A stretch of 64,000 nt of DNA. Origin: Myxococcota bacterium. Lineage in GTDB: Bacteria > Myxococcota_A > UBA9160 > UBA6930. Made by a program: the position numbers and the translations under genes. The DNA lies in NCBI GenBank assembly GCA_965223415.1, contig OZ245002.1:2080001-2144000 (forward strand). The letters run 5' to 3'. Positions 24,597 to 60,124 of this stretch are shown one piece after another (the stretch's first letter is position 1; each line of letters begins with the position of its first letter). The notes beneath the pieces are model-generated. The model ran no database searches, was not told the origin of the DNA, and worked only from the letters and a program-made list of their open reading frames with translations.

Positions 24597-24778
24597 GGCC
24601 GTTGGTTCGGCGCCCGATGTGCAGAAGTTGATCGGGCCAACACCCGAGACGGCTGGGCGAATCACCGAGGGGGAGATCGCGGGGGAGGTTCCTTCCTGTC
24701 GTGGTGTTCGTTCTGCAACGTCTCGTCTTGCGTTCTGGGAGACGGGGAAGCTGGTCGGGCGCGACGACGGTCCCGGCC

Positions 24779-24794
24779 GGGCACCGATCTTGCG
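24779..24794 (+). promoter_or_regulatory. sigma54 -24/-12 promoter of the pseB operon
   Basis: GGGCAC-CGATC-TTGCG, GG-N10-GC. Confidence 0.7.
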
Positions 24795-24838
24795 TAGCTC
24801 CTGCGCATCCGTGACGCATCGTCAGGGCAGGGGGGAAC

Positions 24839-25792
24839 GTGCTCCAGATCCTACTCACCGGTGGAACGGGCTCCTTCGGCCACGCCTTCGCTCGGCGGAT
24901 GCTCCGGGAGCGCGACGACTGCATGATCCGCATCTACAGTCGCGACGAGCTGAAGCAGGCCGAGATGCTCCGCCGCTTCGACGACGACGAGCGTCTGCGC
25001 TTCCTCATCGGCGACGTGCGGGATCGGGTGCGCCTGCGGCGGGCAATGAGCGACGTCGACGTTGTCGTGCACGCTGCCGCCATGAAGCAGGTGCCGATCT
25101 GCGAGTACAACCCGGCCGAGGCGGTGAAGACCAACGTCATGGGCGGCATGAACGTCCTCGAATGCTGCCTGGACGCCGGTGTGCCGAAGGCGATCGCCCT
25201 CTCGACCGACAAGGCGGTGAACCCGGTCAACATCTACGGCGCCACGAAGCTGTGCATGGAGAAGCTCTTCATCCATGGCAACGCCTACGCGGGCGGCAGC
25301 GATACCCGCTTCGCGGTGGTTCGCTACGGCAACGTGGTCGGGAGCCGGGGAAGCGTGATCCCGCTCTTCCTCCAGCAGGCGGCGGACGGCGTCATGACCG
25401 TGACGGACCGCCGCATGACCCGTTTCTGGATCTCCCTGGAGCAGGCGGTGGAGCTGGTGCTGCTGGCGATGGAGGACATGCAGGGCGAGGAGACCTTCGT
25501 GCCCAAGATCCCCAGCATGCGCATCGTCGATCTGGCCAAGGCAGTCCGTTCCGACGCGATGATCAAGGAGATCGGCATCCGGCCCGGCGAGAAGATGCAC
25601 GAGGTTCTGCTCACCGCCGACGAGGCACGGCACGCCCGGGATTTCGAGACCCACTTCGTGATCGGCGGCAATCCGAAGGGCGGCCGCTCGGTGCCGGAGG
25701 GCTTCGTCTACTCGAGCGACCAGAACTCGCTCTGGCTCACGGTCGAGAGGCTCTCGGAGCTGATCGAGAGCTGGAAGGTCGGGCGTGGGTGA
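24839..25792 (+). CDS. pseB: UDP-N-acetylglucosamine 4,6-dehydratase (inverting)
   Basis: TGGTGSFG, SRDELKQ, STDKAVNPVN.YGATK, RYGNVVGSRGSV. Confidence 0.93.
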   Translation: MLQILLTGGTGSFGHAFARRMLRERDDCMIRIYSRDELKQAEMLRRFDDDERLRFLIGDVRDRVRLRRAMSDVDVVVHAAAMKQVPICEYNPAEAVKTNVMGGMNVLECCLDAGVPKAIALSTDKAVNPVNIYGATKLCMEKLFIHGNAYAGGSDTRFAVVRYGNVVGSRGSVIPLFLQQAADGVMTVTDRRMTRFWISLEQAVELVLLAMEDMQGEETFVPKIPSMRIVDLAKAVRSDAMIKEIGIRPGEKMHEVLLTADEARHARDFETHFVIGGNPKGGRSVPEGFVYSSDQNSLWLTVERLSELIESWKVGRG

Positions 25793-26978
25793 GGTCGGCG
25801 ACCGTTCCCATCTTCCCTACACCCGGCACACGCTGGAGCCGGAGGATTCGCAGGCGCTGATCGATGCTCTCGAGAGCGGATGCATCACCCAGGGACCGAT
25901 CGTCCAGGACTTCGAGGCGCGGGTCGCCGCCATCGTGGGCGTGGGCCATGCAGTCGCCACGTCGAGCGGCACGACCGCCCTCGAGACCGCGCTGGCGGCC
26001 CTGGGCGTGGGGCCCGGCGCGGAGGTCGTCGTCCCCACGCTCACCTTCGTGGCGACGGCCAACGCGGTGCGCGCGCGAGGCGCCACGCCGGTCTTCGCCG
26101 ACGTGGATCCGCAGACCCTGAACCTCTCCGCGGAGACCCTCGCGCCTCACGTGAACGAGCGGACCGTGGGAGCGATCCCGGTGCACTTCGCCGGCCACCC
26201 CGCCGACGTCCCCGCGCTTCGGGAGGTGCTCGGGACCGAACGCTTCCTGCTCGAGGACGCCGCCCACGCCTTCGGGGCCGAGCTCGCCGATCGGCCGGCG
26301 GGATCACTCGGCGACGCGGCGTGCTTCTCCTTTCATCCGGCCAAGCTGGTCACGACGGCGGAAGGCGGGGCGGTCGCGACGAATTCGTCCTTCCTCGGCC
26401 GCCGCGCCCGGATGTTCCGCGAGCACGGGCTCGTCCGGGATCCGGCCCTCTTCGAGGGCCTCGACGTGCCGGAGGACCTGGCGGAGGACGGGCTCGGCCC
26501 CTGGGTCTACGAGCAGCAGAGCTGCGGCTCGAACCATCGCATGAACGAGCTCCAGGCGGCGCTCGGGCGCAGCCAGCTCACGAGGACCGGGCGCCTGCTC
26601 GAGCGGCGGCGCGCCCTGGCCGGCGCCTACGATGCGGCGCTCGCCGGCCTGGACGAGGTCGAGCCCCCCGCGGAGCGGGACGGCGCGCGTTCGGCCTGGC
26701 ACCTCTACGTGATCCGGCTGCGCCCCGGCTCGATCGGGCGAGGCGCCCTCTACCGGCGCATGCGCGAAGCGAAGATCGGCGTGCAGGTCCACTACGTGCC
26801 CGTCCATCTCCAGCCCTACCATCGCCACGAGCTGGGCACGGCCTGGGGCGACTACCCGGTGGCCGAGGACGCCTACCTGCGGATGCTCTCGCTCCCCCTG
26901 TTCCCCGGCATGGGAGAGGACGACACCTACCGGGTCGTGGACGCCCTGCGGCAAGCGCTGGCCGGGAGCCCCCGGTGA
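25785..26978 (+). CDS. pseC: UDP-4-amino-4,6-dideoxy-N-acetyl-L-altrosamine transaminase (DegT family)
   Basis: EDAAHA, FSFHPAK (PLP Lys), VQVHYVPVHLQPY; follows pseB. Confidence 0.85.
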   Translation: MGEVGDRSHLPYTRHTLEPEDSQALIDALESGCITQGPIVQDFEARVAAIVGVGHAVATSSGTTALETALAALGVGPGAEVVVPTLTFVATANAVRARGATPVFADVDPQTLNLSAETLAPHVNERTVGAIPVHFAGHPADVPALREVLGTERFLLEDAAHAFGAELADRPAGSLGDAACFSFHPAKLVTTAEGGAVATNSSFLGRRARMFREHGLVRDPALFEGLDVPEDLAEDGLGPWVYEQQSCGSNHRMNELQAALGRSQLTRTGRLLERRRALAGAYDAALAGLDEVEPPAERDGARSAWHLYVIRLRPGSIGRGALYRRMREAKIGVQVHYVPVHLQPYHRHELGTAWGDYPVAEDAYLRMLSLPLFPGMGEDDTYRVVDALRQALAGSPR

Positions 26979-28885
26979 GCGCGCTGGCTCCGGAAGTCCA
27001 CCGGCACGCGCTCCGGACGAACCTGGCCCGCCTGCAGGGCCGCCAGCCGGCCCTCGCCCAGGCGATCCTCGACGCCGATCCGGGCGGCGTGGAGGTGGTG
27101 GACGGAGCCAGGGGCATCCACACCGTGTCCGACCAGGGCACGCTGCTCGCCTCCGCCTACGACCCGGCGCGAGAGGGAGCGCGCCTGGCCGCGGACATGG
27201 CGGACGCTCCCACCGATCTGCTTGTCGCCGTGGGCTTCGGCCTCGGCCACCACCTCGAGGCCTTCCGCTCGCGCAATCCGTGTCCCGTCGTGGTCTACGA
27301 GCCGAAGCTCGCCCGGCTGCGGGCGGCGCTCTCGGCGCGGCCGGACCTCCGCCTGCTCGAAGAGGACGACGTCTACCTGACCGGCGATGCCGACGAGCTC
27401 CGCAACCTGATCGCCGCGCGCTACACGCCGGGGCTCCGGATCAAGGTCTTTCCCCATCCCGCACTGATGCGGCTCTCGCCGGATGCGGTGCACGAGGCGA
27501 TCGACCGGGTCTCCCGGGTCAAGGACTCGATCGATCTGGTCACGAACACGCGGATGACGATGATGGCCGATTGGGCACGGGGCACCATCGCCAACGCCCG
27601 CCACCTGACCCACCGGCCGAGCATCACGCGCCTCGCCGGCGCGTTCCGCGGCGTGCCGGCGGTGATCTGCGCTGCGGGCCCGTCGCTCGATCGGCAGCTC
27701 CCCAAGCTCGCCGCCGCCCGGGATCGGGTGCTCGTCGTCGCCATCGGTCAGACGCTGCGGGCACTCCGCCGGGCCGGGATCGAGCCCGACCTCGTGCACG
27801 TGGTGGAGAGCCAGGACGTGGCCCACCAGCTCACCGAGGCCGGCGACGTGAGCCGGCTCCACCTCGTGCTGCCGCCCCAGGCCCACCCTTCCCTCTTCAC
27901 GCTGCCCGTCCGCCAGCATTGGATCGCCTATCAATCGACGAACCCGTTCGGATGCTGGATCGGAGAGCAGCTCGGCGAGCGGGACTTCCTGCCCTCGGCA
28001 GGAACCGTGACCCAGTGCAGCCTGCACCTGGCCCGGGTGATGGGCTGCAACCCGGTCGCCGTGATCGGCCAGGATCTCGCCTTCACCGGGGGGCGCCTGT
28101 ACGCGAGCGGGTCCGCCTACCACGACGTCGGCTTCCGCACTCTCGCCGACGGGCGCTACGAGTACACGAACCTGCGCGGCAAGCTCGAGGCCCTGGGACG
28201 CGACGATCCCGGCCAGGCGATGGGCGGCGAGCTGATCTGGGTGGAGGGCTGGGACGGGAATGCCGTCCCGACGAACCAGGCCTACGCGTCCTTCCTCGAC
28301 CACTACCGGGACCTGAGTCCCTACTTCGCCCGCGAGGGCGTCAGCCTCGTGAACTGCACGGAAGGCGGCGCGCGGCTCCCGGGGCTGCTGCACCGGCCCT
28401 TCCAGGAGTTCCTGGACGAGCACGCGCGGACGCCCCACGGCGCGGGTGAGGTGCTCGCCCGGACGGCGGGCGCCTTCACGCCCGCTGCGCCGGGCCGCTT
28501 CGACCCCGGCTTCTCGAGGCTCCGGCGGGAGCTCCGCGAGCTCGGCCGCGAGTGCAGCCGCGGCCTCGAACGGGCGCGCAAGGCGCGCCGGGAGGTGGAG
28601 CGCGCCGCCGGAGAGGCCCGCCAGGTGGAGCTCCTACGGGGCGTCGCCCGGAGCCAGCGCAGGATCCATACCGTCGTTTCCCGCGTGACGCTCCTCGACG
28701 CCCTCGTCCAGCGCGAGCTCCAGGGCGTCCAGAGTGACGTCTCGCGGGCCTCCTCCGCCCATCCGACGCCGCTCCAGGTGGCGGGTGAGGCGGAACGCTT
28801 GATGGAGGCGGCCCAGCAGGCGGCCCGTCGCGGGGTCGAGCTCGTGGACACCCTCGAGCGGGAGATCGCGGACTCGCTGCCTTAG
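26975..28885 (+). CDS. maf: motility-associated factor (Maf) flagellin glycosyltransferase
   Basis: SAYDPAREG, GFGLGHH, AAGPSL, GQDLAF, NCTEGGA motifs. Confidence 0.85.
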   Translation: MSALAPEVHRHALRTNLARLQGRQPALAQAILDADPGGVEVVDGARGIHTVSDQGTLLASAYDPAREGARLAADMADAPTDLLVAVGFGLGHHLEAFRSRNPCPVVVYEPKLARLRAALSARPDLRLLEEDDVYLTGDADELRNLIAARYTPGLRIKVFPHPALMRLSPDAVHEAIDRVSRVKDSIDLVTNTRMTMMADWARGTIANARHLTHRPSITRLAGAFRGVPAVICAAGPSLDRQLPKLAAARDRVLVVAIGQTLRALRRAGIEPDLVHVVESQDVAHQLTEAGDVSRLHLVLPPQAHPSLFTLPVRQHWIAYQSTNPFGCWIGEQLGERDFLPSAGTVTQCSLHLARVMGCNPVAVIGQDLAFTGGRLYASGSAYHDVGFRTLADGRYEYTNLRGKLEALGRDDPGQAMGGELIWVEGWDGNAVPTNQAYASFLDHYRDLSPYFAREGVSLVNCTEGGARLPGLLHRPFQEFLDEHARTPHGAGEVLARTAGAFTPAAPGRFDPGFSRLRRELRELGRECSRGLERARKARREVERAAGEARQVELLRGVARSQRRIHTVVSRVTLLDALVQRELQGVQSDVSRASSAHPTPLQVAGEAERLMEAAQQAARRGVELVDTLEREIADSLP

Positions 28886-28897: not shown

Positions 28898-30376
28898 TCA
28901 GGCCCCGCCGTCACCCGGCGGAGGCTCGAAGACCTGTTGGGAGTAGCTGAAGCTGGTGTCGCCCTGATTGCGCTTCGGGGTGTGCTGCTTGTAGCCGCCG
29001 GTGCGAATCAGCTCGTCGTCGGCCAGACCGAGCTCGAGGCTCCGGTTCAGGCGCGAGCATTCCTCCTGGATCGCGTGCAGGATCGCCTCGTCCTCGAGCG
29101 CGGTCATGTTGAGGCAGATGTCCTGGCGCTCGGTAATCGAATCGAGGTAGGCGTCCTCGTCGGGGATGAACCCGTTCCGGCGGGCGTAGTCGTACATCTC
29201 GGTGTCGGGAAGCGGAAGGAGGAAGCCCACGCTCGGGTAGACGCCGTTGCGCTCGCAGAGGTCGAAGGTCTCGCGGATCGTGTCGCGAGTCTCGATCGGA
29301 TAGCCGAGCACGACGCTGGTGTTGGAGGTGATCCCGACCTCGCGCAGCAGGCGCACCTGCTCCTCGAAGTAGTCCACGCGAACCCGCTTGTTCATCATGG
29401 CGAGGATCTCGGCGTTGCCGGACTCGAGGGAGTAGCCGAGGGTGAGGCAGCCGGAATCGCGGAACTTCTGCGCGACTTCGAGGCGCCGCTCGTAGGGGAT
29501 CTGCCGGTTTCCGAACAGGTCGGTCCGCACGGCGGCGCTCCATGCGAAGCGCAGCCCGGAACCCAGGATCGCGTCCACCAGCTTCTCGGCTTGGGCGAGC
29601 TTGGTAAAGGTGAGGTCGTCCCAGAAGTTGATGTAGTTCGCGCCGTAGCCCTCGATGTTGCGGCGCACTTCCTGCAGCACGCCCTCGGCGCACCGGTGCC
29701 GATAGGGGTCGTGCTTGAAGACGATGTGGCAGAACGTGCACTTGTAGACGCAGCCGCGGGCGGTCGCGACGGGCATCGTGCGCCAGGTCGCATCGCCCTG
29801 GGTCGTGCCCCAGGCGGAGGGCGCGTCCGTCTCCGCGAAGTAGCGATCGACGTCGAAGAGGTCCCAATCGGGCATCGGCAGCTGGTCGATCGGGGCGGCC
29901 TTGCGGCGGGGCGTGTGGAGCGGCTCGCCCCGGGCGTCTCGAAGGACGATGCCCTCCACCTCGTGGAGGGCCGTGCCGCGCCGGAGTGCGTCGAGCACGG
30001 CCACGGTCGTGATCTCGCCCTCGCCGACCACCACCACATCGGCCTGCGACCGGGCCAGGAAGAGGTCCGGGACCGAGCCCGCCACCGAGTTCCCCACGAC
30101 GATCTTCGCTCCGGGAGCAGCGCGGCGCGCCATCTCCGTGAAGCCCTTCATCCACTTGTAGTGGGTGACGATCGATCCGGTGAGGATGACCTCCCAACGA
30201 TTCCGGCCCAGGAAGGCCTCGACGGCGTCGTCGTCCTGGTCGTGGACCCCGACGTCGAGAAGCTCGACCTCGTAGCCGGCTTCGCGCACCGCCGTCATCA
30301 CGTAGGCGAGACCGACCGGCAGGTAACGGGTCGCGTGGCCCGGACGCAGGTTGGGATTGACGAACAGCAGGCGCAT
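28898..30376 (-). CDS. cobalamin-dependent radical SAM enzyme (class B methyltransferase type)
   Basis: N-terminal B12-binding domain (PVGLAYV, VGEGE), RGCVYKCTFC, ESG. Confidence 0.88.
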   Translation of the reverse strand: MRLLFVNPNLRPGHATRYLPVGLAYVMTAVREAGYEVELLDVGVHDQDDDAVEAFLGRNRWEVILTGSIVTHYKWMKGFTEMARRAAPGAKIVVGNSVAGSVPDLFLARSQADVVVVGEGEITTVAVLDALRRGTALHEVEGIVLRDARGEPLHTPRRKAAPIDQLPMPDWDLFDVDRYFAETDAPSAWGTTQGDATWRTMPVATARGCVYKCTFCHIVFKHDPYRHRCAEGVLQEVRRNIEGYGANYINFWDDLTFTKLAQAEKLVDAILGSGLRFAWSAAVRTDLFGNRQIPYERRLEVAQKFRDSGCLTLGYSLESGNAEILAMMNKRVRVDYFEEQVRLLREVGITSNTSVVLGYPIETRDTIRETFDLCERNGVYPSVGFLLPLPDTEMYDYARRNGFIPDEDAYLDSITERQDICLNMTALEDEAILHAIQEECSRLNRSLELGLADDELIRTGGYKQHTPKRNQGDTSFSYSQQVFEPPPGDGGA

Positions 30377-30397
30377 GAAAGCTCCCTCGGCGGGCCG

Positions 30398-31135
30398 CTA
30401 CCAGCGGTAGGGCGTCTGGGGCACGTGCTCGTTCCAGACGAGCCAACCCGGGTGCTCGGTGAGCCAGCCCTCGACCCGGTCGAAGCCGAAGGCTTCCTCG
30501 CCCGGATGCAGGGCGTCGTAGAGGGCGGAGACCAGCCGGTAGTCGTCGGCGGTGTCCACGGCGAGCCGCCACGGGCGCCGATCCGGTGTGCGATCGAGAT
30601 ACGCGGCCGGGCCCGCCTGTCCCCGCCAGAGCCAGGGCGTCACGTGCTCGCGCTCGTAGGGGTCCCGCGCCTCGCGGTGCGCCCGGAGCAGCGCCGCCGC
30701 GGTGAAGGCCTCCGCGTCGAGACCGATCGGGTAGCCGCTCTCGAGGGCCGTCGACGCGAACGCCACGTCGAGGCCCTGGCGCAGGGCGAGCACCGACGCA
30801 CCGACCGCCGGGTCGTAGAGCGGGCAGTCCGACGTGACGCGAAGCACGACGGAGGCGCCGGTCGCATCCACCGCCAGGGCCGTTCGCGCGAGCACGTCCT
30901 CCTCCGGTCCGCGCACGACGTGCACGCCCCTGTGCAGAGAAGCGACGTCGACCACCGGCTGCTGAGCCGCGCCCTCGGGAAGGGCGACGCAGATTTCGTC
31001 GACGCCCGGCGTCCGCCCGACCCGCTCGATCACCCGCGAGAGGAGCGGGGCTCCGGCGAGGGGCAGGCACACCTTGCCCGGCAGCCGTGTCGAGGTGCCC
31101 CGCGCCTGGATCACCGCCACGACGGGCCCGCTCAC
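30398..31135 (-). CDS. acylneuraminate cytidylyltransferase (SpsF/PseF-like)
   Basis: IQARGTSTRLPGKV, RVTSDCP, REHVT, LAVDTADD. Confidence 0.85.
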   Translation of the reverse strand: MSGPVVAVIQARGTSTRLPGKVCLPLAGAPLLSRVIERVGRTPGVDEICVALPEGAAQQPVVDVASLHRGVHVVRGPEEDVLARTALAVDATGASVVLRVTSDCPLYDPAVGASVLALRQGLDVAFASTALESGYPIGLDAEAFTAAALLRAHREARDPYEREHVTPWLWRGQAGPAAYLDRTPDRRPWRLAVDTADDYRLVSALYDALHPGEEAFGFDRVEGWLTEHPGWLVWNEHVPQTPYRW

Positions 31136-32187
31136 GACGCCTCTCCCAGCTGTTCCCACTGGAGGGGCTCGCCCCGCTTCAGATCGCGGAGCGCCGGGCG
31201 ACCGAGCACCGCGCCCAGGTGACGCGGCTCGAGGCCGAGGGCGGGACGGATCGAGCGCACCGCGTCACGGGTGAGCCGCTCTCCGGCTGCCACGTCCCGC
31301 ACGACGTAGAGCGAGCGCCGACACCGGCGGCTGCTCGCCTCGCAGGCAGCCGGTGCCGAACGTCCGTCGCCCAGGCCTTCCCAGGCGGCCCGCACGTCGC
31401 GCACCATCGCCGCGAACTCGTCGGGCTCCAGGCTGAAGCCCGCGTCGGGGCCGCCGTCGGCTCGCGCCAGGGTGAGGTGCTTCTCGATCAGGCTCGCGCC
31501 GAGGGCGACCGCGGCGATCGGAGCGGCGGGCCCGAGGCTGTGGTCCGACAGCCCGGTGACGACGCCGAACTCCGCCGCGAGGGTCGCCATGCGGCGCAGG
31601 TTCATCTCGCCGGGCGGGGTCGGGTAGCCGCTCACGCAGTGCAGCAGCGCCAGGTCGGTGCCGCCGGCGGCCCGGGCCGCGGCGAGGGCGCGTCGGATCT
31701 CGTCGGGCGTGGCCATGCCCGTGGAGAGGACGACCGGGCGTCCGGTCGCCGCGGCCCGCGCGATCAGCTCGAGATCGCCCAGCTCGAAGGACGCGATCTT
31801 GTAGGCTGGTGCGTCCAGCCGCTCGAGGAAGTCGACGGTCGCCGGGTCGAAGGGGGAGCTGAAGACAGCCATTCCCAGCTCGCGGCCGCGGGCGAAGAGC
31901 GCCGGGTGCCACGCGGCGGGCGTCTGGGCCTCGGCGTAGAGCTCGAACAGGTTGCGACCGCGCCAGGGGCCGTCCTCGATGTGGAACCCCGGCCCGCTCT
32001 CGTCGAGGGTCATGCTCTCGGGCGTGTAGGTCTGGAGCTTCACGGCGTCGGCGCCGGCCCGGTGGGCGGCTTCGACGATGGCGAGGGCGCGGTCCCGATC
32101 GCCCAGGTGGTTCGCCGAGAGCTCCGCCACCACGTAGGGCGGCGCGCCGTCCCCAATCCAGCGTCTGTCCAGGGCGAATCCGCTCAC
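31132..32187 (-). CDS. pseI: pseudaminic acid synthase
   Basis: AELSANH, KLQTY, KIASFE, GLSDH, IEKH, C-terminal SAF domain. Confidence 0.9.
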   Translation of the reverse strand: MSGFALDRRWIGDGAPPYVVAELSANHLGDRDRALAIVEAAHRAGADAVKLQTYTPESMTLDESGPGFHIEDGPWRGRNLFELYAEAQTPAAWHPALFARGRELGMAVFSSPFDPATVDFLERLDAPAYKIASFELGDLELIARAAATGRPVVLSTGMATPDEIRRALAAARAAGGTDLALLHCVSGYPTPPGEMNLRRMATLAAEFGVVTGLSDHSLGPAAPIAAVALGASLIEKHLTLARADGGPDAGFSLEPDEFAAMVRDVRAAWEGLGDGRSAPAACEASSRRCRRSLYVVRDVAAGERLTRDAVRSIRPALGLEPRHLGAVLGRPALRDLKRGEPLQWEQLGEAS

Positions 32188-32921
32188 GGGCTCACTCCCA
32201 GGGTGCGCGGCTCGCGCCGGCCCCGTCGCAGGATCTCCCGGGCCTCGCGGCCGGTATTGAGGAGCAGGTCGACGGCGCTCGCCTGGGAGACGAAGCCGGC
32301 GCTGCACCGGGCACTGCACTGGGGATAGGGCGGTGGCTCGAAGTGCTGGATCGAGACGCGGATGCCGCGGCTGCGGAACGGCTCCTGGTCCTCGAGCAGG
32401 TAGGGCTCGGCTCCGGGGGCGGAGAGGTAGTGGGTGGCGCCCAGCTCCTCGCACAGGCCGGCCAGTCGCTCGCCCCGCCGCCCGCCGGCCTCGAGCCGCG
32501 AAGAGCGGTGGATCGGCACGTCGATGCCGAGCTCGTGGAACAGCCAGCCGATCAGCGCCAGGTTCAGCTCCGCGAGCCCCGTCCACGGCGCGCCGGAGGC
32601 GTAGGTGGCCTCGAGCCGCGACGCGAAAGGCTCGAGGGCGGGGGCGCGGGCGTAGGCGTGGCGGAGGGTGCGCAGGTGTTTGCGCCAGAAGTCCGCGTGG
32701 TCGATCGCGACGTCGCGGATGGTCTGTCCGCGCAGCCCCTTTACCCGCACCGGAACCGTCAGCCAATGCAGCGCGCCGCCGACGACGATGCGATTGCGCT
32801 GCTGCCAGCTGCGGTGGGCGAAGCTGGCATCGTCGAGGAAGACGAAGCGATCGACCTGGTCCGCCAGGTCGAGGTAGCCGGGCCACGGCAGGTAGGTGGG
32901 CTGCATGATCGCGACCCGCAT
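32184..32921 (-). CDS. WbqC family protein
   Basis: IMQPTYLPWPGY...QQRNRI...WLTVPV...YLSAPGA. Confidence 0.88.
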   Translation of the reverse strand: MRVAIMQPTYLPWPGYLDLADQVDRFVFLDDASFAHRSWQQRNRIVVGGALHWLTVPVRVKGLRGQTIRDVAIDHADFWRKHLRTLRHAYARAPALEPFASRLEATYASGAPWTGLAELNLALIGWLFHELGIDVPIHRSSRLEAGGRRGERLAGLCEELGATHYLSAPGAEPYLLEDQEPFRSRGIRVSIQHFEPPPYPQCSARCSAGFVSQASAVDLLLNTGREAREILRRGRREPRTLGVSP

Positions 32922-33871: not shown

Positions 33872-33872
33872 G

Positions 33873-34584: not shown

Positions 34585-34615
34585 CGTTTCAGATCGAAAC
34601 GCGGCGGTTTCGATC
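34585..34615. promoter_or_regulatory. overlapping palindromes, candidate enhancer (activator-binding site)
   Basis: CGTTTC-N5-GAAACG at 34585-34601 and GATCGAAAC-N6-GTTTCGATC at 34592-34615. Confidence 0.55.
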
Positions 34616-51189: not shown

Positions 51190-51931
51190 GCACCGAGGCT
51201 GGCTGTTGGCAGCGCTCCTCCTGGCGCTCGCCCAGACCGGCTGCATCGAGAGCTCGCTTCGCGAAATCGCCACGCCGCGCCGCTACCCGGCGCCGCCCCA
51301 GACCCCGACGGCCCCGCCCACCGAGGGCGCGATCTGGAGCGGCGGCACCGCTGGTGGCTCCTTCCTCTACTTCGACCGCAAGGCGCGGGGCGTCGGCGAC
51401 CTGGTGACCGTGCTGGTGGCCGAAAGCCCGCGCGCCACCGGCAGCGCCAACACCCAGCTCGACCACACGACCACCTACGACGCCACGCTTACCTCGGACA
51501 TCGGCTTCACGACCCTGCTCCAGGAAGGAGCCGCGCAGCTCTTCAACCTGGTCGGTGTGGACGGAGGAGGGACGGCGGCACCCGGGGAGGCCGTGAACGT
51601 CATCAGCGGCACCGGCGGCAGCCAGTTCGACGGGGACGGCCAGACCGCACGGAGCGGACAGTTCACCGCCATCGTCACCTGTCGAGTGGTCGACGTCCTG
51701 CCCGGCGGGATCTTCCACGTCTTCGGGCAGCGCCAGATCGTCGTGAACCACGATCTCCAGTGGATCACGGTCGAAGGGCTGGTCCGCCGGGAAGACATCA
51801 GCATCGACAACACCGTGCGTTCCTCGGTACTGGCGGACGCCAAGCTCACCTACGACGGCATCGGCGTGATCGACGACAAGCAGCGGCCGCCGCTGGTCTC
51901 GAGGCTCATCAACTGGGTGTATCCTTTCTGA
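51176..51931 (+). CDS. flgH: L-ring lipoprotein FlgH
   Basis: Lipobox TGC; DRKARGVGD; GLVRREDI..DN. Confidence 0.9.
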   Translation: MSSSRHRGWLLAALLLALAQTGCIESSLREIATPRRYPAPPQTPTAPPTEGAIWSGGTAGGSFLYFDRKARGVGDLVTVLVAESPRATGSANTQLDHTTTYDATLTSDIGFTTLLQEGAAQLFNLVGVDGGGTAAPGEAVNVISGTGGSQFDGDGQTARSGQFTAIVTCRVVDVLPGGIFHVFGQRQIVVNHDLQWITVEGLVRREDISIDNTVRSSVLADAKLTYDGIGVIDDKQRPPLVSRLINWVYPF

Positions 51932-53025
51932 TGCTGCGCTCCTTCGCCGTTCTCGCGCTCTCGGTCTTGCTCGCCGGGCCCAGCGTGGCCGTGCGCCTGA
52001 AGGACATCGCTTCGATCCAGGGTGTCCGTGCGAACCAGCTGACGGGCTACGGCCTCGTCGTGGGCCTGAAGGGCACCGGCGACAAGAGCGGTACCGAGTT
52101 CACCGTGCGTTCCCTGGCCAGCGTGCTGGCGCGCATGGGCATCGGGGTCGACGCGGACCAGATCCAGGTGAAGAACGTGGCGGCGGTGGTGGTGACCGCT
52201 GCGCTGCCGCCCTTCGCCCGGGCCGGCTCGCGCATCGACTCGACGGTCTCGTCCCTCGGTGACGCCACCAGCCTCGAAGGCGGCACCCTCGTGATGACGC
52301 CGCTCTTCGGCGCCGACGGCCAGGTGTACGCGATCGCTCAGGGCGCCGTCTCGGTCGGGGGCTTCTCGGCCGGCGGAGGCGGGGGCTCCTCCGTCGCGAA
52401 GAACCACACGACGGTGGGGCGCCTGGCCGGCGGCGCCACCGTGGAGCGGGAGCTCGCCTACGAGATCGACCGCAAGGACGCCTTCGACGTGGCGCTGGCG
52501 GAGGTCGACTTCACCACGGCCCGTCGCATCGCGCGGGTGATCAACCGGGAGCTGGGCGAGGACGTGGCGATCGCCCCGGATCCGGGGACCATCCGCGTCC
52601 GCGTCCCGACCCACTACCGCTCCGATGTGGTCGGCTTCCTGGCCGCCGTCGAGGCGATCGAGATCGAGCCGGATCGCGCTGCGAGGGTGGTACTGAACGA
52701 GCGCACCGGCACGGTGGTGATGGGCCAGAACGTCACGATCTCGACGGTCGCCATTTCCCACGGGTCCCTGTCGGTCACGATCCGTATCGACAACGACGTC
52801 TCGCAGCCGCTCCCCTTCTCGGAGGGGGTGACGACGCCGGTGACGAACGACGAGATCACCGCCGTCGAGGAGGAGGCGACGCTCACGGTGGTGCAGGGAC
52901 CTGTGACCATCGACGAGCTGGTACGCGGGCTGAACGCCATGGGTGTGACGCCCCGCGACCTCATCTCGATCCTCCAGGCTATCAAGGCCGCCGGCGCGCT
53001 TTCCGCCGAGATCGAGGTGATGTGA
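51931..53025 (+). CDS. flgI: P-ring protein FlgI
   Basis: RLKDI, NQLTGYGLVVGL, GDATSLEGG, ERTGTVV. Confidence 0.93.
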   Translation: MLRSFAVLALSVLLAGPSVAVRLKDIASIQGVRANQLTGYGLVVGLKGTGDKSGTEFTVRSLASVLARMGIGVDADQIQVKNVAAVVVTAALPPFARAGSRIDSTVSSLGDATSLEGGTLVMTPLFGADGQVYAIAQGAVSVGGFSAGGGGGSSVAKNHTTVGRLAGGATVERELAYEIDRKDAFDVALAEVDFTTARRIARVINRELGEDVAIAPDPGTIRVRVPTHYRSDVVGFLAAVEAIEIEPDRAARVVLNERTGTVVMGQNVTISTVAISHGSLSVTIRIDNDVSQPLPFSEGVTTPVTNDEITAVEEEATLTVVQGPVTIDELVRGLNAMGVTPRDLISILQAIKAAGALSAEIEVM

Positions 53026-53306
53026 TGGATCCGGCGGGTCTCGAGGCGCTGCGCGCCCTCGGCGGGCAGGTCGAGCGGGGTGGTGCGGAAGCGCGGCGAC
53101 AGGTGGCGCGGGAGTTCGAAGCGCTGCTGGTCGGTGAGATGATGAAGCAGGCGACGCGCCCGACCCTGGGCGACACGCCGCTCTCCGGCGGCTCCGCCGC
53201 GCGCATGTGGCAGGAGATGTTCCTCGACCAGGTCGTTCGCAGCGGCGCCGGCCGCTTCGGCCTGGCCGAGGCCGTCGAGCGGGAGCTCGAAGGGGCGAAG
53301 AAGTGA
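53025..53306 (+). CDS. flgJ: FlgJ, rod-binding domain only
   Basis: AREFEALLV..MMK...GLAE; no muramidase domain. Confidence 0.8.
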   Translation: MDPAGLEALRALGGQVERGGAEARRQVAREFEALLVGEMMKQATRPTLGDTPLSGGSAARMWQEMFLDQVVRSGAGRFGLAEAVERELEGAKK

Positions 53307-53803
53307 CGACCGAGCGGCTCACCGCACTCACTTCCGTGCTCGACGCCGAGGAAACGCTCTATGTCGAGCTCAGGGATCTGCTCCAGCGCGAGCACGGGTT
53401 GATGGTCACCCTCGACGCCGAAGGCCTCGAGGAGGTGGCGCGGCGCAAGGAAGAGCTGGCGGACGAAGGCCGACTGGTCGAAGAGACGAGGATGTTCCTC
53501 TGTCACGAGCTGGCTGCCGCACTCGGCATGGCCGACGCCCGCCCCCGCCTCTCCGGCATCTGCGAGCGCCTCGGCCCGGAAGGCCGGGCGCTGCGCGAGG
53601 CCCACACCCGACTGGTGGTGCTGGTCAGTGTGGTCCGCGAGCTGATGGACGCCAACAACGCGCTGGCGGGCGACGCGCTCTCCCAGGTGCGCGGAACGCT
53701 CCGCATGCTGGGCGGGCTCGTCCCCGGTGAGATCACCTACGAGGGCTCCGGGCCGGTACACGCCGGGCTCGGGGTCGGCCAGCTCGTGCGAAGGACCGCC
53801 TAG
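53303..53803 (+). CDS. flgN: export chaperone FlgN
   Basis: Helical; located just before flgK; C-terminal TY...G motif. Confidence 0.75.
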   Translation: MTTERLTALTSVLDAEETLYVELRDLLQREHGLMVTLDAEGLEEVARRKEELADEGRLVEETRMFLCHELAAALGMADARPRLSGICERLGPEGRALREAHTRLVVLVSVVRELMDANNALAGDALSQVRGTLRMLGGLVPGEITYEGSGPVHAGLGVGQLVRRTA

Positions 53804-53811
53804 GAGCCATC

Positions 53812-55260
53812 ATGACCGGAATCTTCGGCGCCCTCGACATCGCCCGGAAGGGCCTCATCGTCACCCAGGCGGGTGTTCGCGTGGCCGGTCACAACATCGC
53901 CAACGCGAACACGCCGGGCTTCACCCAGCAGCGCGGGCTCCAGGCCGCCGATGCACCCATCCGCACCTCCGTCGGCCTCCAGGGCACGGGCGTGCGCTCC
54001 TTCGGTGTCGAGCGCATCACCGATCCCTTCGTGCAGGCCCAGCTGATTCGCCAGCAGGGCGCGACGGCCTCGGCCCAGGCCCAGTCCGGCGTGCTCTCCC
54101 TGGTGGAGGAGATCCTGAACGAGCAGGACACCGGCGGCATCACCGCCGCCCTTGGCCAGTTCTACGACGCCCTCGACGATCTGGCGACCAGCGCCACGCC
54201 CGGTGCGCCGGCCGAGCGGTCGGCCCTCGTGGCTTCGGCCCAGGCGGTGGTGGACACGCTCCACGTCACCGACGGACGCATCCGCGACGTGATGGCCTCC
54301 ACCAACGACGCCATCGAGGGGGTCATCCCGCGGGTGAACGACATCCTGAGCCACATCAACACCCTGAACGGGGAGATCAACCGCATCGAGGTCGACGCCT
54401 CGAGCCAGGCCAACGACCTCCGCGACCAGCGCGATGCGCTGCTCCGCGAGCTCGCGGGCGTCATGGACATCACCCACTACGAGAACGACGACGGCGCCGT
54501 CGTCGTGGGCCTCACCAGCGGTGCCGCCCTCGTCGAGGGCGGGCGTGCCCGCTCTCTTGGCCTGGCCGTGGACCCCGCCAACCCGTTCAACACCGGCTAC
54601 TTCCGGATCGATCTCATCGACCAGTCGGCGGTGCGGGACATCACGGCGGAGATCGGTGCCGGCGAGCTGGGTGGCCTGCTCCGCTCCCGCGACACCATCC
54701 TGCCCGCCGCCGTGCGCTCCCTCGATACCGTCGCCTACAACCTGGTGGCGAGCGTGAACACGGTGCATGGAGCCGGCCAAGGCCTGACCGGCGTCACCGG
54801 CGACTTCTTCACTGCGCTGCCGGTGGTGGAGGATGCTGCCCGCGACGTCGGCATCGCGGCGAACATCCTCGCCAACCCGGACGACATCGCGGCAGGCCTG
54901 ACGTCCGCCGCCGGCGACAACCAGAACGCCCTGGCCCTGGCCGCGCTCCGCGACCAGAAGGCGCCTCTCTTCCTGCCCGGTGACCCGCCCGGCCCCGCCA
55001 GCGGCCCGACCCGGAGCGTCACCGAGCACGCCGTGGCGGTGGCGGTCGACGTCGGCCAGCAGGCCCAGAGCATGGCGTCCTCGCTGACCCAGCAGGAGAA
55101 GATCATCGAGAGCCTCGAGAACCGGCGCGAGGAGGTCTCCGGCGTCTCGATCGACGAGCAGGTGACCGACCTGATCAAGCTCCAGGCCGCGTTCCAGGCG
55201 AACTCACGGGTGATCGGCGTGGTCGAGAGGCTGCTCGACGACCTGGTCAACATCCTCTAG
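53812..55260 (+). CDS. flgK: hook-associated protein FlgK
   Basis: HNIANANTPG, GTGV, SGVSIDE. Confidence 0.92.
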   Translation: MTGIFGALDIARKGLIVTQAGVRVAGHNIANANTPGFTQQRGLQAADAPIRTSVGLQGTGVRSFGVERITDPFVQAQLIRQQGATASAQAQSGVLSLVEEILNEQDTGGITAALGQFYDALDDLATSATPGAPAERSALVASAQAVVDTLHVTDGRIRDVMASTNDAIEGVIPRVNDILSHINTLNGEINRIEVDASSQANDLRDQRDALLRELAGVMDITHYENDDGAVVVGLTSGAALVEGGRARSLGLAVDPANPFNTGYFRIDLIDQSAVRDITAEIGAGELGGLLRSRDTILPAAVRSLDTVAYNLVASVNTVHGAGQGLTGVTGDFFTALPVVEDAARDVGIAANILANPDDIAAGLTSAAGDNQNALALAALRDQKAPLFLPGDPPGPASGPTRSVTEHAVAVAVDVGQQAQSMASSLTQQEKIIESLENRREEVSGVSIDEQVTDLIKLQAAFQANSRVIGVVERLLDDLVNIL

Positions 55261-55272
55261 CGGGAGGCGGCG

Positions 55273-56217
55273 ATGCGCGTCACCCAATCGATGATCATCC
55301 GGTCCGCGCTCGAGGACTTGAACCGCGCGCGCCTGCGCCTGGCCCGGACCCAGGAGCAGGCCGCCAGCGGCCTGCGCATCAACCGGCCTTCGGACGATCC
55401 GGTCGGCGCCTCCGCCGCGATGCTGCTCAAGTCCGGGATCGACGCCACCCGCCAGTACCAGCGCAACATCACCCAGACGCGCACACGGCTCGCCGCCGGC
55501 GAGAATGCCATCGCCAACGCGACGGATCTCCTGATCCGCGCCAAGGAGCTGGCGATCCAGGGCGTGAACGGCACCCAGAACGCCGCGTCGCGGGCCCAGC
55601 TCGCCAAGGAGATCGAGGGCCTGCACGCGAGCCTGCTCGCCGAGGGCAACAGCCGCATCGCGGGGGGCTCGCTCTTCGGCGGCTTCGCTTCGGACACGGC
55701 GCCCTTCGTCGCGTCCGGGGCCTTCGTCGACCTGCCGCCCTCCTCGCCGACGGTCACCTTCGCTGGCGACCGCAACGAGGTGCAGGTCCAGATCGACGAG
55801 GCGGTGCGGGCGACCGCGACCCTGAACGGCCAGCGGGTCTTCATGGGCGACGCCAACGGCGACGGCCTCGTCGACGCCGGGCGCGAGGACGTCTTCCAGC
55901 TCCTGGCCGATCTCCGCGACGGGCTCATCACCGACAACGTCGCCCAGATCAACGGGGCGCTGCCGCGCCTCGACACGGCCCTGGGCCAGCTCTCGGTGGA
56001 GCGGACGCGCTTCGGCGCCGCGCTGAACCAGCTCGACACCTTCGAAGAGCGCCTCGAGGATCGCTTCGTCGACCTCACGACGCGCCTCTCCGACACCCAA
56101 GACGCCGACGCCGTCAAGGTGTTCTCCGACCTCGCCAGCCAGGAGGTGGCGCTGCAGGCCTCCCTCCAGGCCAACGCCCGCCTGATCCAGCCGACGTTGC
56201 TGGACTTCATCGCCTAA
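55273..56217 (+). CDS. flgL: hook-associated protein FlgL
   Basis: MRVT, SGLRINRPSDDP, TLLDFI. Confidence 0.92.
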   Translation: MRVTQSMIIRSALEDLNRARLRLARTQEQAASGLRINRPSDDPVGASAAMLLKSGIDATRQYQRNITQTRTRLAAGENAIANATDLLIRAKELAIQGVNGTQNAASRAQLAKEIEGLHASLLAEGNSRIAGGSLFGGFASDTAPFVASGAFVDLPPSSPTVTFAGDRNEVQVQIDEAVRATATLNGQRVFMGDANGDGLVDAGREDVFQLLADLRDGLITDNVAQINGALPRLDTALGQLSVERTRFGAALNQLDTFEERLEDRFVDLTTRLSDTQDADAVKVFSDLASQEVALQASLQANARLIQPTLLDFIA

Positions 56218-56219
56218 CG

Positions 56220-56462
56220 GTGCTCGTCCTCACCCGCCGCGCCGGCGAGAGCGTGCGCATCGGATCGGAGATCCGGGTCACCGTGCTCAGCGCGGCCGGT
56301 GGCCAGATGCGCATCGGCATCGAGGCCCCGGGCCGTGTGGCCGTGCATCGCGAGGAGGTCTTCGACCGCATCGTAGCCGCTAACGTCGAGGCGGCGTCGG
56401 TGGCGCCGTCGGAGCTGGAGCGCTGGCTGCCGAAGACGAAGACGAGCGGGGAGGGGAAGTGA
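56220..56462 (+). CDS. csrA: carbon storage regulator CsrA
   Basis: MLVLTRR.GE...IGIEAP...VHREE, with C-terminal extension. Confidence 0.92.
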   Translation: MLVLTRRAGESVRIGSEIRVTVLSAAGGQMRIGIEAPGRVAVHREEVFDRIVAANVEAASVAPSELERWLPKTKTSGEGK

Positions 56463-56902
56463 GCGGAGCCGAGACCGTCGCGATCGATCACGAGCGCTTC
56501 GGGCGCGTCGAGGTGCCGGCACCGGACGTGCTGCTCTTCGACGGCCTGCCCGGCTTCGCCGACGCGCGCCGCTTCGCCCTGCTGCGCCACGATCGCGAAT
56601 CCGCCTTCCTCTGGCTCGTCTCCCTCGACCGCCCGGAGCTGGCCTTCGTGGTCACCGACCCCTGCCAGTTCTTCCCGGACTACGCGCCCAGGCTGAGCAG
56701 GCCCCAGCTCGGCGCCGTCGAGGCCGAGAGCCCCGAGGTTGTCGAGCTCTACGCCATCGCGACCATCCGCGAAGGCTCGACCAGCCTGAACCTGGCGGCG
56801 CCGGTGCTCGTGCACGCCGCGGCCGGCCGCGGGGCCCAGGTGATCCTGGACCAGAGCGAGCGCGGGACGCGGGAGCCGCTGCCGGAGCCGCTGGAGAACT
56901 GA
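56459..56902 (+). CDS. fliW: flagellar assembly factor FliW
   Basis: GLPGF, FVVTDP..FFPDY, NLAAPV, QVIL. Confidence 0.9.
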   Translation: MSGAETVAIDHERFGRVEVPAPDVLLFDGLPGFADARRFALLRHDRESAFLWLVSLDRPELAFVVTDPCQFFPDYAPRLSRPQLGAVEAESPEVVELYAIATIREGSTSLNLAAPVLVHAAAGRGAQVILDQSERGTREPLPEPLEN

Positions 56903-57549: not shown

Positions 57550-58761
57550 GTGTCCTGTTTCGGAAAAAAATACGCAAAATAGTGCGAACTCCCAACGTGC
57601 AGGGGGCATCTTACCGGCATCACGTTGGGGGGACGTATGGCGAATCGTGGCCGGCCCAAGACGCCGATTGTGCTGACGGATGCGGAGCGAGAAGAGCTCC
57701 AGACGCACGCCAGAAGGCGGAAGAGCGCGCATCAGTTGGCCTACCGCTCGCGCATTGTATTGCTCGCAGAGCAGGGGCTGACGAATGGGGAAATCGCGGA
57801 ACGCGTAGGCAAGCGACGAGAGACCGTCGGGATCTGGCGCAAGCGCTTCGTCGAAAAGCGGATCGCTGGGCTCTACGACGAGCCCAAGCCGGGAGCGCCC
57901 CGGACGGTGACCGACGAGCAGGTCGATGAGGTCGTGCGCTTGACGCTAGAGGAAACGCCCACGGGAGCGACGCACTGGTCCGTTCGCCTGATGGCGAAGC
58001 GGGTAGGCCTCCCGACGACGACGGTTCATCGCATCTGGCGAGCATTCAGCCTCCAGCCGCACCGAGTCGAGCGCTTCCGGCTCTCCAACGATCCCCATTT
58101 TGTGGACAAGGTGGTGGATATCGTCGGCCTGTACATGTCTCCGCCGGCGAACGCGGTCGTCCTCTGCGTCGACGAGAAATCGCAGATCCAAGCGCTGGAA
58201 CGGAACCAGCCTGTCTTGCCGATGCAACCGGGCCGGGCGGAGCAGCGCACACACGGATACCTACGCCATGGCACGACGACACTCTTTGCCGCACTCAACA
58301 TCGCAACGGGCGAAGTGATCGGATCCCTCCATCGCCGGCACCGCACGGAGGAGTTCCTGAAGTTCCTCAGGACGATCGACGACAACGTACCCGCCGAACT
58401 CGACATCCATCTCGTGCTCGACAACTACACCACGCACAAGACGAAGCGAACTCGGAGCTGGCTCGCGCGCCACCCTCGTTTCCACGTGCACTTCACCCCG
58501 ACGTACAGCTCATGGCTGAATCAGGTCGAGCGGTTCTTTGCACTCATCACCGAGCGTTGCATCCGTCGCGGCGTGCATCGCAGCACGAGGGCGCTCGAGA
58601 ACGACATCCGGAGCTTCCTGAAGACGACGAACGACGATCCGAGACCCTTCGTCTGGACCAAGACCGCGGATCAGATCCTCGCGAGTGTGCGGCGCTACTG
58701 TGGTCGCGTCCTCGACGTCCACTCCGATTCTAATCGAGTGGTTTCTTCTGGAACAGGACAC
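57550..58761 (+). mobile_element. IS630-family insertion sequence
   Basis: Terminal IRs GTGTCCTGTT(T/C)C(G/A)GAA; flanking TA duplication in CTAG (57547-57550 and 58761-58764). Confidence 0.92.
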
Positions 58762-58764
58762 TAG
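57637..58764 (+). CDS. IS630-family DDE transposase
   Basis: HTH (GATHWS), [30 protein letters not shown]; single intact frame. Confidence 0.95.
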
Positions 58765-59882
58765 ATCGAGTCGAAGCCCCACACGTAGAGAGGGAAAGGC
58801 AACCGGCCGCCTACCGCCTCCCGCTCCGCCGGCGTCAGTGCCGCGTGGAGTGAGGCTGCAGCTGGTGCGTCCTCTCCGCCGAAGAGCAGCGACAACGCCT
58901 GGGCGTGGTTCAGCCGCAGCTCACCCTCGCCTCCGCCCAGCCGTACGCCGTCACGGCTGTTCGCGAGGGCAACGCGCGCGAGCTCCGGCCGGTCGGCGGC
59001 GATCGCCCGCCACAGCCCTGCCGGATCCAGCAGCCGCATCAGGGCGAAGCTCCCCTCCTTGCCCACGGCGCCCGCGTCGTCCAGGAGCTTTGCCAGCAGG
59101 TCGGCGCCCGGGCCGACCATCAAGGCCAGGGCGCGGCGCTCCGCCAGGAGCTCCAACAGGCAGGCCAGCACGCCGGTCGCCTGGCCGGCCCACTCGTGGA
59201 CGACGTCCGCGAAGTCGTCGCCGCGGCCGAGGGCGGCATAGGCGATCGGGCGGCCCCGGTGGTGGGCGACGCGCAGGTCGACCTGGGGGCCGGCGGCGAG
59301 TCGCGCCAACTCGCCGGGGCTGCGCTCCGCCCGGAACGGCTTGGCGTCGTAGAGGGCCTCGAGAGCGCTCCACTCCCTCTCCACCGGCGGGCCCACGTCG
59401 AGGAGGGCCGCGCCCTCCAGTCGCGCGCTGGCGCGGCGGACGACCGTTTCGTCGACAAACAGGAAGCGCTCGCGGCCGGCCGGATGGAAACCCAGGCGCC
59501 GGTAGAAATCCTGGCGATCGCTCCACAAGAGGGCGAGCGGGATGTCCTCGCTCCGCAAGCGCTCGGAACAGGCCTCGACGCAGCGGCTCGCCAGTCCGCG
59601 CCCTCGAGCGGCCTCCTCCGTGTACACGAGGCCGATCATGCCGAGCCGCAGGCGAAGCCCACCGACGCGGGCGGTCGTGCGGTGGATCATGGCGTGAGCC
59701 AACGGCCGATCGCCCTCGCGCACCAGGAGCTGGTCGGCTGCGTGCTCCCTTCTCAGGGAAATCGGGTACTCCGCCTCGAGTCTTCCCCGGGTTCCTCCGC
59801 GAAGTCCGTCGTCGAGCCAGTCGACGACAGACCGCCACTCGTCGTCGTCGACAGCAGCGAGCGTGGCGCGCTCTGCATCCAT
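58761..59882 (-). CDS. Eis-like GNAT acetyltransferase
   Basis: [22 protein letters not shown]...FYRRLGF; tandem GNAT folds; C-terminal WGFDSI. Confidence 0.8.
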
Positions 59883-59894
59883 GGAAGGGCGAAT

Positions 59895-59910
59895 CGCAAG
59901 AACGATGCCG
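59895..59910 (-). promoter_or_regulatory. sigma54 promoter of the Eis-like GNAT gene
   Basis: Minus strand CGGCAT-CGTTC-TTGCG, GG-N10-GC, ending 12 nt before the ATG. Confidence 0.55.
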
Positions 59911-60108
59911 CGTTCTCGCCGGCGCTCGTCGTCCCTCGACGACGAATTGTGTCGCGACCTTTCGACCTGAAACGCGGAAGGCGTGCCGGTGGAACGGTGG
60001 TTCGCATCACACAAGTGCAGCGCGCGCGCATCCGCAGGGGAAAGGCCGCGCCGGCCTCTGGAGACGGCGAAACATGCATGCTAGGCCAGGCGTTTCGCCC
60101 AGGGCCGG

Positions 60109-60124
60109 TGGCACCCGCCTTGCA
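60109..60124 (+). promoter_or_regulatory. sigma54 promoter of flagellin
   Basis: TGGCACC-CGCC-TTGCA. Confidence 0.85.

Follow-up and report, generated by a model that had tools for sequence, protein, structure and literature searches.

We have analysed a stretch of 64,000 nucleotides (the window; G000:C1:2080001-2144000) of a Myxococcota genome, the source genome G000, which is a single contig of 5.83 Mb and 71% G+C. The window holds the first part of a flagellar gene cluster that spans ~21 kb to ~84 kb in window coordinates, beyond the window end (genes by codon model), and that is syntenic in the relatives compared. The sigma54-type promoters of this cluster share a palindrome, CGTTTCA-N3-TGAAACG, which we call box A. 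We propose that box A is the enhancer of a sigma54 activator encoded at 37158 (ACT), that ACT is switched on by FliA, and that its action is modulated by a second activator (ACT2) at a second palindrome, GGMA-N5-TKCC (box B). We hold this reading as a whole to be fairly probable. What we see in the sequence are both boxes and their phasing, the sigma54-type and FliA-type motifs, the intact motifs of ACT, the losses in ACT2, and no hit to FlgM.

The original prediction, made from the window alone, was of a sigma54 regulon of flagellar and pseudaminic-acid genes with a shared enhancer bound by the 37158 activator. That outline holds up, with the 37158 activator as the likeliest predicted reader by the match of its recognition helix to that of PrpR. 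Neither box B nor ACT2, which lies at genome 2151996-2153282 before flgB, was part of it.

Box A at sigma54-type promoters

The six GG-N10-GC promoters first reported are all found at their places (the minus-strand ones being given by their low coordinate), and they have the features of sigma54 promoters: GG at -24, GC at -12, a fixed spacing, an intergenic position, and a gene that they face. The genome encodes RpoN, with an RpoN box in a 486-aa protein. The six motif copies reported with them are likewise all present, together with a seventh, weaker one at 34606-34622. These copies had been placed about 50-140 bp from the promoters. Measured from the box centre to the -24 element, the box is upstream of five promoters (67 bp for pseB, 101 for 34694, 132 for flgF, 56 for GNAT and 143 for fliC); at 34678 (-) it is ~100 bp downstream.

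To define the boxes, 87 intergenic sigma54-pattern promoters were gathered from the clusters of 17 genomes, and 67 of them (one hand-added) were retained in six orthologous classes: flgB, flgF, fliC, PilZ, ORF-34746 and pseB. The matrices were trained de novo by expectation-maximization (EM) on 49 of the 67, from 12 genomes of other genera. The original prediction had proposed enrichment and conservation as checks of its motif, and the motif is recovered in these other genera as cgTTTCA-N3-TGAAAcg, with a log-likelihood of 382, far above the 63-67 of shuffled inputs. Box B, found by EM as cGGMA-N5-TKCCg after masking box A, reaches 165.

With a cut-off of >12 bits, box A is present at 64/67 of the orthologous flagellar promoters: flgB 16/16, flgF 14/15, fliC 12/12, PilZ 9/10, ORF-34746 8/8 and pseB 5/6. 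Among held-out promoters, it is found at 17/18 from the own genus of the source genome and at 14/17 from further contigs, where two of the three promoters missed belong to back-to-back pairs, on the pseI side. In a first out-of-sample test, box A was found beyond the window at the sigma54-type promoters of flgB and of the PilZ-ACT2 operon. The box upstream of pseB, weak in the source genome, is at 65-67 bp in three relatives too (G004, G039 and G058). As for the flagellins, we observe a sigma54 site at 26 of the 35 genes (19 genomes), and 23 of these 26 have box A while none (0/26) has box B.

Box A is also specific to the regulon. Six of the eight genome-wide hits above 16 bits with the other-genera matrix fall inside the 64-kb flagellar cluster, where 0.09 would be expected by length. 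A scan of the source genome for intergenic sigma54-like promoters gave 82 (the pseB and GNAT promoters are below its threshold), and box A precedes 5/6 of those in the cluster as opposed to 2/76 of the others (Fisher p=4.5e-6). The two outside promoters belong to a second Maf/NeuB locus (genome 1132696) and to an MCP-CheA-CheW-CheB-CheR operon (4295407). By comparison, plain counts within the window are modestly above chance: the box consensus occurs 7 times versus 2.96 +/- 1.70 in shuffles, and the promoter consensus 6 times versus 2.26 +/- 1.53, with 4/100 shuffles reaching the observed number in each case. The case for box A stands on position and conservation.

Position is best seen in the phasing. 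Taking the best box of each promoter (n=64), box-A centres lie near 46, 56, 67, 79, 89, 101, 110, 122, 131 and 142 bp from -24, with a period of 10.7 bp (R=0.63). Boxes A and B are phased even more tightly with each other (n=37, period 10.4, R=0.86), at distances of 20-22, 30-33 and 40-42 bp on either side. None of 2000 uniform draws reaches either value, also when unique gene-distance pairs are used; since the genomes are kin, these statistics and the p-values are overstated. Box B alone shows no significant phasing after collapsing duplicates (233/2000 draws). Neighbouring box-A pairs are 19-21 bp apart in 18/27 cases, and an extra half-site one turn outward, such as the one by flgF in the window, is found in 4/64 only and is not general. 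Box A has what is looked for in the enhancer of a bacterial enhancer-binding protein (bEBP): it is a conserved inverted repeat within ~200 bp of the promoters of one regulon, and helically phased.

Some observations are set aside. Exact matches to the box-A pattern in the wider survey of 61 genomes (at least one in 17/18 ACT-bearing genomes and in 20/43 others) are not used as support because they are confounded by base composition, and the reversed control hits several genomes without ACT as well. A genome with a different flagellar cluster and neither ACT nor ACT2 (G055) has no sigma54-pattern promoter at its flagellar genes, and of the 8 box-A hits that exceed 12 bits in 80 kb there, 7 are within open reading frames (ORFs); its lower G+C makes it a weak negative control. 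Readings of box A as a CRISPR repeat, a riboswitch or a LexA site were dropped by reasoning, as the copies are single, in either orientation and upstream of promoters.

Which protein reads which box

The source genome encodes 21 sigma54 activators. ACT has what an active bEBP requires: Walker A and B, a GAFTGA loop, arginine fingers and a Fis-type helix-turn-helix (HTH). The loop is GAFTGA or GSFTGA in 18/18 sequences, with catalytic motifs retained. Its phosphorylation site has Glu in place of Asp in the source genome; several relatives have the Asp, some of them with an upstream kinase gene. As a separate observation, other loci show an intact-looking kinase upstream of ACT, and in the loci L213, L216-L218 and L223-L238 a gene of ~430 aa is found there with a kinase-like helix lacking the His, a second candidate pseudokinase.

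The recognition helix of ACT is 8/10 identical to that of E. coli PrpR, which is the top among the 21 activators, the next one having 5/10. It is identical in 117/120 homologues, and ACT precedes fliL in 39/46 loci. Homologues of ACT are labelled Myxococcota or Deltaproteobacteria by their sources. Orthologues (at least 58% identity) are found in 18 of the 61 genomes, all with flagellar genes; there is no ACT hit in four flagellated genomes (G002 and G054, both ~81% complete, G006, and G055), and the ACT HTH was not found outside its own order among 251 genomes of the phylum. As a whole protein, ACT scores 290 bits with the PrpR family, below the cut-off of 499, and has a receiver in place of the PrpR sensing domain; it is also below the cut-off of 750 of both FlbD (296) and FlgR (270).

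The PrpR enhancer of Salmonella is given as CGTTTCATGAAACG in a review table (PMC4987338), TGAAAC repeats are present in the E. coli prp promoter, and D. vulgaris DVU2827, which has a similar helix, has similar sites, GTTKCA-N4-TGMAAC (PMC4641369). Thus the half-sites of box A are shared with known enhancers, and the motif has a precedent in them. The original prediction also stated that the motif resembles neither the FleQ nor the FlbD boxes. This is right for box A, which does not fit GTCA-N6-TGAC and is unlike a ftr/DVU1063-type box; a DVU1063-type box is nevertheless present, as box B. Box A is the sole box at the flagellin, so that it needs a catalytically sound protein; ACT keeps its motifs and ACT2 has often lost its loop. 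All this suggests that box A is likely read by ACT.

ACT2 is a different case. Its sigma54 loop, in 17 complete sequences, is GAFTGA in 6, GAFSGA in 3 (the source genome included), GSFTGV in 1, and lost in the other 7. Placed by eye on a midpoint-rooted tree of 18 genomes, built from four flagellar proteins, these losses map to three or more distinct positions. The kinase-like gene ahead of ACT2 lacks the His in 7/7 copies. The ACT2 HTH scores best against FlbD (E 8.8e-11), and its helix, kept in 19/19, is 3/10 identical to that of PrpR. Box B matches the 13-bp DVU1063-type site at flagellar sigma54 promoters and may also resemble the ftr element of FlbD. It exceeds 12 bits at flgB 14/16, flgF 13/15, fliC 0/12, PilZ 4/10, ORF-34746 5/8 and pseB 1/6, and it directly adjoins the flgF promoter in G000, G004, G005 and G053. 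That ACT2 reads box B is likely from its FlbD-like helix.

A probable place of FliA above ACT, and the proposed circuit

The original prediction had ACT regulating its own gene. As ordinary sigma54 activation this is contradicted: among the 27 of 46 loci that reach motB, there are no sigma54 sites between motB and ACT, and a FliA-type motif, TCAAG/TAAAG-N14-15-RCCGAT, is found there in 26. Controls with the wrong spacer give 0 and 1, and the reverse strand 1. (These loci overlap the other genome sets and many are close kin.) The whole interval was rescanned because many loci have a gene between the FliA-type site and ACT; directly upstream of ACT alone, the motif is found in 9/38. A hidden sigma54 promoter before ACT was also looked for on the coding strand of 14 loci and discarded (best 7.7 bits); one reverse-strand hit near ACT has 15.0 bits (G053). 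Box B exceeds 12 bits in 20/27 leaders of the ACT operon, often 92 bp downstream of the -35, which favours repression. Separately, at window 37084-37095, ~8 bp before the FliA-type -35, there is an element CGGAAAAGTCCA that resembles box B with a shorter spacer and is kept in G004, G005, G011, G001 and G012.

In the source genome, the FliA-type motif peaks sharply at a spacer of 15: 47 sites, of which 42 are intergenic, 39 face a gene and 0 face away. The motif of the ACT operon matches a Bdellovibrio FliA promoter with a mapped transcription start site, TTAAG-N16-CCGATA (PMC3627812). We also observe 46 oriented FliA-type promoters before small PilZ-like, receiver-domain and type IV pilus genes (names from sequence), and a FliA-type promoter at genome 2164023 (window +84023), with box A ~21 bp upstream, before a 165-aa ORF that follows flgE; the latter arrangement is kept in G004. 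A FliA is found in 52/61 genomes, most of them without flagella, and in the source genome the one FliA over cut-off is encoded far from the flagellar cluster. The fliA gene lies behind a FleQ-like activator and has a sigma54-like site in 29/30 loci and a GTCR-N6-YGAC box in 24/30 (by eye); the FleQ-type box there is imperfect in the source genome.

The canonical FliA-FlgM late checkpoint does not fit these genomes. FlgM is found in 0/61 genomes by its Pfam model, with a positive control, and 2/35 flagellin genes, that of the source genome not among them, score a sigma28-type site at 13.5 bits or more. With a FliA-type promoter at the ACT operon and no FlgM, sigma28 appears to stand above, and not below, the sigma54 flagellar genes; from these promoters, we consider it likely that FliA acts above ACT. 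The cluster also contains csrA and fliW, and the leader of the flagellin gene is rich in GGA. Presumably the checkpoint on flagellin here is CsrA-FliW, which would gate flagellin translation in the place of FlgM.

The proposed circuit would then run as follows. The FleQ-like activator adjoining fliA would switch on fliA via its sigma54 promoter. FliA would transcribe ACT and the export apparatus (fliL to fleN), along with ~40 further genes, most of them non-flagellar. Bound to box A on the DNA face of the promoter, ACT dimers would open the sigma54 promoter of the ACT2 operon as well as those of motAB and of the rod, hook, flagellin, glycosylation and chemotaxis genes. Finally, flgB, flgF and the ACT operon, but not the flagellin, would be bound by ACT2 at box B, which is two to four turns away from box A. 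There ACT2 would most likely lower the expression of early and middle genes by feedback, leaving flagellin on, and we lean slightly towards such repression from the placing of box B. More tentatively, and with rather more doubt than belief, we extend this to an order-wide inverted cascade (FleQ-like/sigma54, FliA, PrpR-helix activator/sigma54 to flagellin) in which a two-box code replaces FlgM, and in which a FlbD-like activator would have been inactivated independently in at least three lineages to act as a pure DNA-binding partner at phased sites of early and middle genes, never flagellin.

Several observations weigh against the circuit. ACT and ACT2 co-occur with the flagellar genes, so that presence and absence cannot tell which protein reads which box. 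One genome that is 94% complete (G006) has box A at fliC and no ACT hit; its flgB is missing too. The PrpR half-sites abut, and the DVU2827 spacer is one base longer than that of box A. The D. vulgaris table of PMC4641369 gives DVU1063 a helix unlike that of ACT2, and puts the helix of ACT2 under DVU1156, with a different motif. Box B is at only some promoters of the PilZ, ORF-34746 and pseB classes, and weak at flgB of the source genome (9.6 bits). Box A exceeds 12 bits in only 13/27 ACT-operon leaders; thus ACT autoregulation is not general. Regarding FliA, 5 of the 9 genomes without a FliA hit retain the FliA-type motif (9-24 copies; the other 4 are at background), the FliA-type site of the source genome scores lowest in its training set (13.7 bits), no such site is scored in 4/16 cluster loci (G023, G027, G032 and G035), two flagellin genes do score one, and a diverged FlgM could evade the Pfam model. 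Beyond the kinship of the genomes, the 49 promoters that trained the matrices are also counted among the 67.

Could ACT2 instead be a co-activator? It would form a mixed ring or cooperate with ACT on phased A and B boxes, so that promoters with both boxes fire first, while ACT is still scarce, and flagellin, with box A alone, later. The tight A-B phasing suggests a contact between ACT and ACT2, nine of the 17 loops read GAFTGA or GAFSGA, the source genome included, and there are precedents for two activators in FleQ/FleT, HrpR/HrpS and VnfA1/VnfA3 (PMC7277832, PMC9542535). On the other hand, the ACT2 operon is itself under a box-A promoter, which would make ACT2 arrive late, and box B sits in repressor-like places: often 92 bp past the FliA-type -35, and abutting the flgF promoter in four genomes. 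We find co-activation rather unlikely, and prefer ACT2 as a repressor.

The assignment of box A to ACT can be questioned in two ways. Its reader could be another of the 21 activators, or an architectural factor that is not an activator, with ACT merely residing in the cluster. The genome with box A and no ACT hit would fit this, and the activator at genome 1433590-1434549 has a helix 5/10 like PrpR. However, that activator has a clear orthologue (at least 64%) in 3/18 flagellated genomes and a possible one (54-57%) in 3 more, as opposed to the near-invariant helix of ACT and its place before fliL, and we find such a reader improbable. More improbable still is that the assignment is swapped or single, with ACT2, a FleR/FlrC/FlbD-like protein beside flgB, being the true flagellar activator that reads box A. 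The known activators of rod and hook genes are FlbD, FlrC and FleR (PMC7064773), and the D. vulgaris table, in its available part, does not pair the ACT2 helix with box B (PMC4641369). Yet ACT2 is without a sigma54-contact loop in 7/17 genomes whose promoters retain box A, its helix has little of PrpR's, and DVU2956, with a related S-x-R-T-L-R helix, pairs with GGCAA half-sites (PMC4641369). Box A as the site of ACT fits these observations best.

Features of the window and known systems

Features are collected in the Table. The fliQ, fliR, flhB, flhA and flhF genes were not profile-scanned and are named by sequence and gene order, as are flgG, A, H, I, K, L, fliD and fliS.

Table. Boxes, promoters and genes of the regulon in the window (window coordinates; bits are matrix scores).
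Position	Strand	Feature	Remarks
24683..24697		box B	weak (8.4 bits), 22 bp upstream of box A
24704..24720		box A	weak (9.4 bits), centre 67 bp upstream of pseB promoter
24779-24794	+	sigma54-type promoter of pseB-pseC-maf	GGGCACCGATCTTGCG
24839..28885	+	pseB, pseC-like, Maf/PseD-like glycosyltransferase	pseB over cut-off, pseC-like below
28898..34574	-	second glycosylation operon	methyltransferase, PseG-like, WbqC, PseI, cytidylyltransferase-like, B12 radical SAM
34585..34601		box A	top-scoring genome copy (24.3 bits)
34606..34622		second box A	10.4 bits, two helical turns from the 34585..34601 copy
34678..34693	-	sigma54-type promoter of second glycosylation operon	box A downstream of promoter
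34694..34709	+	sigma54-type promoter of ORF 34746-motA-motB	back to back with 34678..34693 (-)
34746..36978	+	197-aa ORF, motA/pomA-like, motB-like	ORF without family
36980..36994		box B	top genome copy (19.4 bits), 21 bp upstream of box A
37000..37016		box A	14.1 bits, upstream of activator operon
37023..37039		box A	13.4 bits, upstream of activator operon
37104..37129	+	FliA/sigma28-type promoter of activator operon	GCAAG-N15-GCCGAT; TCAAG or TAAAG in relatives
37158..38588	+	ACT, sigma54 activator	receiver, intact GAFTGA, Fis-type HTH, helix ISTTTLWRRL
38608..48755	+	fliL fliM fliN fliOP fliQ fliR flhB flhA flhF fleN, HDOD protein, 95-aa ORF	predicted remainder of the sigma28 operon headed by ACT
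48774..48790		box A	16.0 bits, extra TGAAACG half-site one turn on (48795-48801)
48890..48904		box B	16.0 bits, abuts flgF promoter
48914..48929	+	sigma54-type promoter of flgF...fliW	
48972..56902	+	flgF G A H I J N K L, csrA, fliW	
58761..59882	-	GNAT-family gene	divergent from flagellin in most relatives
59895..59910	-	sigma54-type promoter of GNAT gene	
59958..59974		box A	23.0 bits, common to GNAT (56 bp) and flagellin (143 bp) promoters; no box B
60109..60124	+	sigma54-type promoter of fliC	sole flagellin gene of the genome
60125..60265	+	long flagellin leader	seven GGA motifs; candidate CsrA target
60266..63355	+	fliC, fliD, fliS, fliT	

The divergent sigma54-type promoters at 34678-34709, and those at genome 1132696/1132710, are back to back with a gap of 0-14 bp (33-77 bp in some relatives), and each such pair shares one box A that is upstream of one promoter and downstream of the other. 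At 40411-41427 a single ORF matches both FliO and FliP, an apparent fusion also present in relatives. Between the HDOD gene and flgF, at 48468-48755, there is a conserved ORF (62-95 aa) with a C-terminal D-I-R/K-x motif and no family hit. PilZ and CBS-GGDEF genes at 22954-24596 are divergent from pseB; together with the HDOD and PilZ genes of the cluster, they suggest a c-di-GMP input. An IS630-like transposase (DDE_3) is inserted beside the GNAT gene (57625-58764), and one with matching N-terminal sequence at genome 4607972-4608829 adjoins the FleQ-like gene. Directly before the window, genome 2062000-2077000 has a cluster of ORFs whose translations look like integrases and transposases, and a pair resembling BrnT/BrnA.

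In its working this regulon resembles the sigma54 flagellar cascades already described, and its sites are of familiar kinds. With PrpR and DVU2827 it shares the half-site CGTTTCA/TGAAACG, repeated in the promoter, and the helix, and it differs in the N3 spacer, in having a receiver and not a ligand-sensing domain, and in its flagellar, not metabolic, targets. With DVU1063 and FlbD it shares the box B site and an FlbD-like HTH; here box B is off the flagellin promoters and phased with a second box, and the protein that probably reads it has often lost its catalytic function. The title of a work cited in PMC7064773 describes FlbD as both activator and repressor, and repression by FleQ gives a precedent for such a dual role in this class of activators (PMC3424551). 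In Rhodobacter sphaeroides, FleQ and FleT are also two sigma54 activators that act jointly on flagellar promoters, the first inducing the second, and FliA and FlgM are at the bottom, driving fliC (PMC7277832). Here, on the other hand, each activator has its own HTH and apparently its own box, FliA is apparently upstream, and FlgM was not found in the genomes surveyed. Bdellovibrio bacteriovorus has the same promoter spacing and a FliA that serves many non-flagellar genes, some of them regulators; the available part of that work does not mention a sigma54 activator that is driven by FliA and takes over the rod, hook and flagellin genes (PMC3627812). The four-tier cascades of Vibrio (FlrA, FlrBC, FliA) and Pseudomonas (FleQ, FleSR, FliA) use the same FleQ-like, FleR-like and FliA proteins and put export genes before rod and hook genes (PMC7064773, PMC3439928; see also PMC12316311 for comparison). 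What differs here is that the work would be done by an extra activator, ACT, that the FleSR-like pair has degenerated, and that FliA apparently comes in the opposite order. A flagellin under sigma54 and without FlgM recalls Caulobacter. In the literature searched, where subscription papers are thinly covered, we found none on box A as a flagellar enhancer or on the flagellar regulation of this lineage. Nothing in that literature appears to combine these features: an activator with a PrpR-type helix, a second box in phase with the first whose likely reader is often inactive, FliA apparently at the head of the cascade, and no FlgM.

For a lineage without a cultured model, these results offer predicted binding sites and a proposed wiring diagram for flagellar control, and boxes A and B can be used as probes for unlinked motility, glycosylation and chemotaxis genes in these genomes. 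If the proposed circuit is true, sigma28 would stand above rather than below the sigma54 tier, and ACT2 would provide a natural series from an enhancer-binding ATPase to a catalytically dead regulator whose site has been kept.

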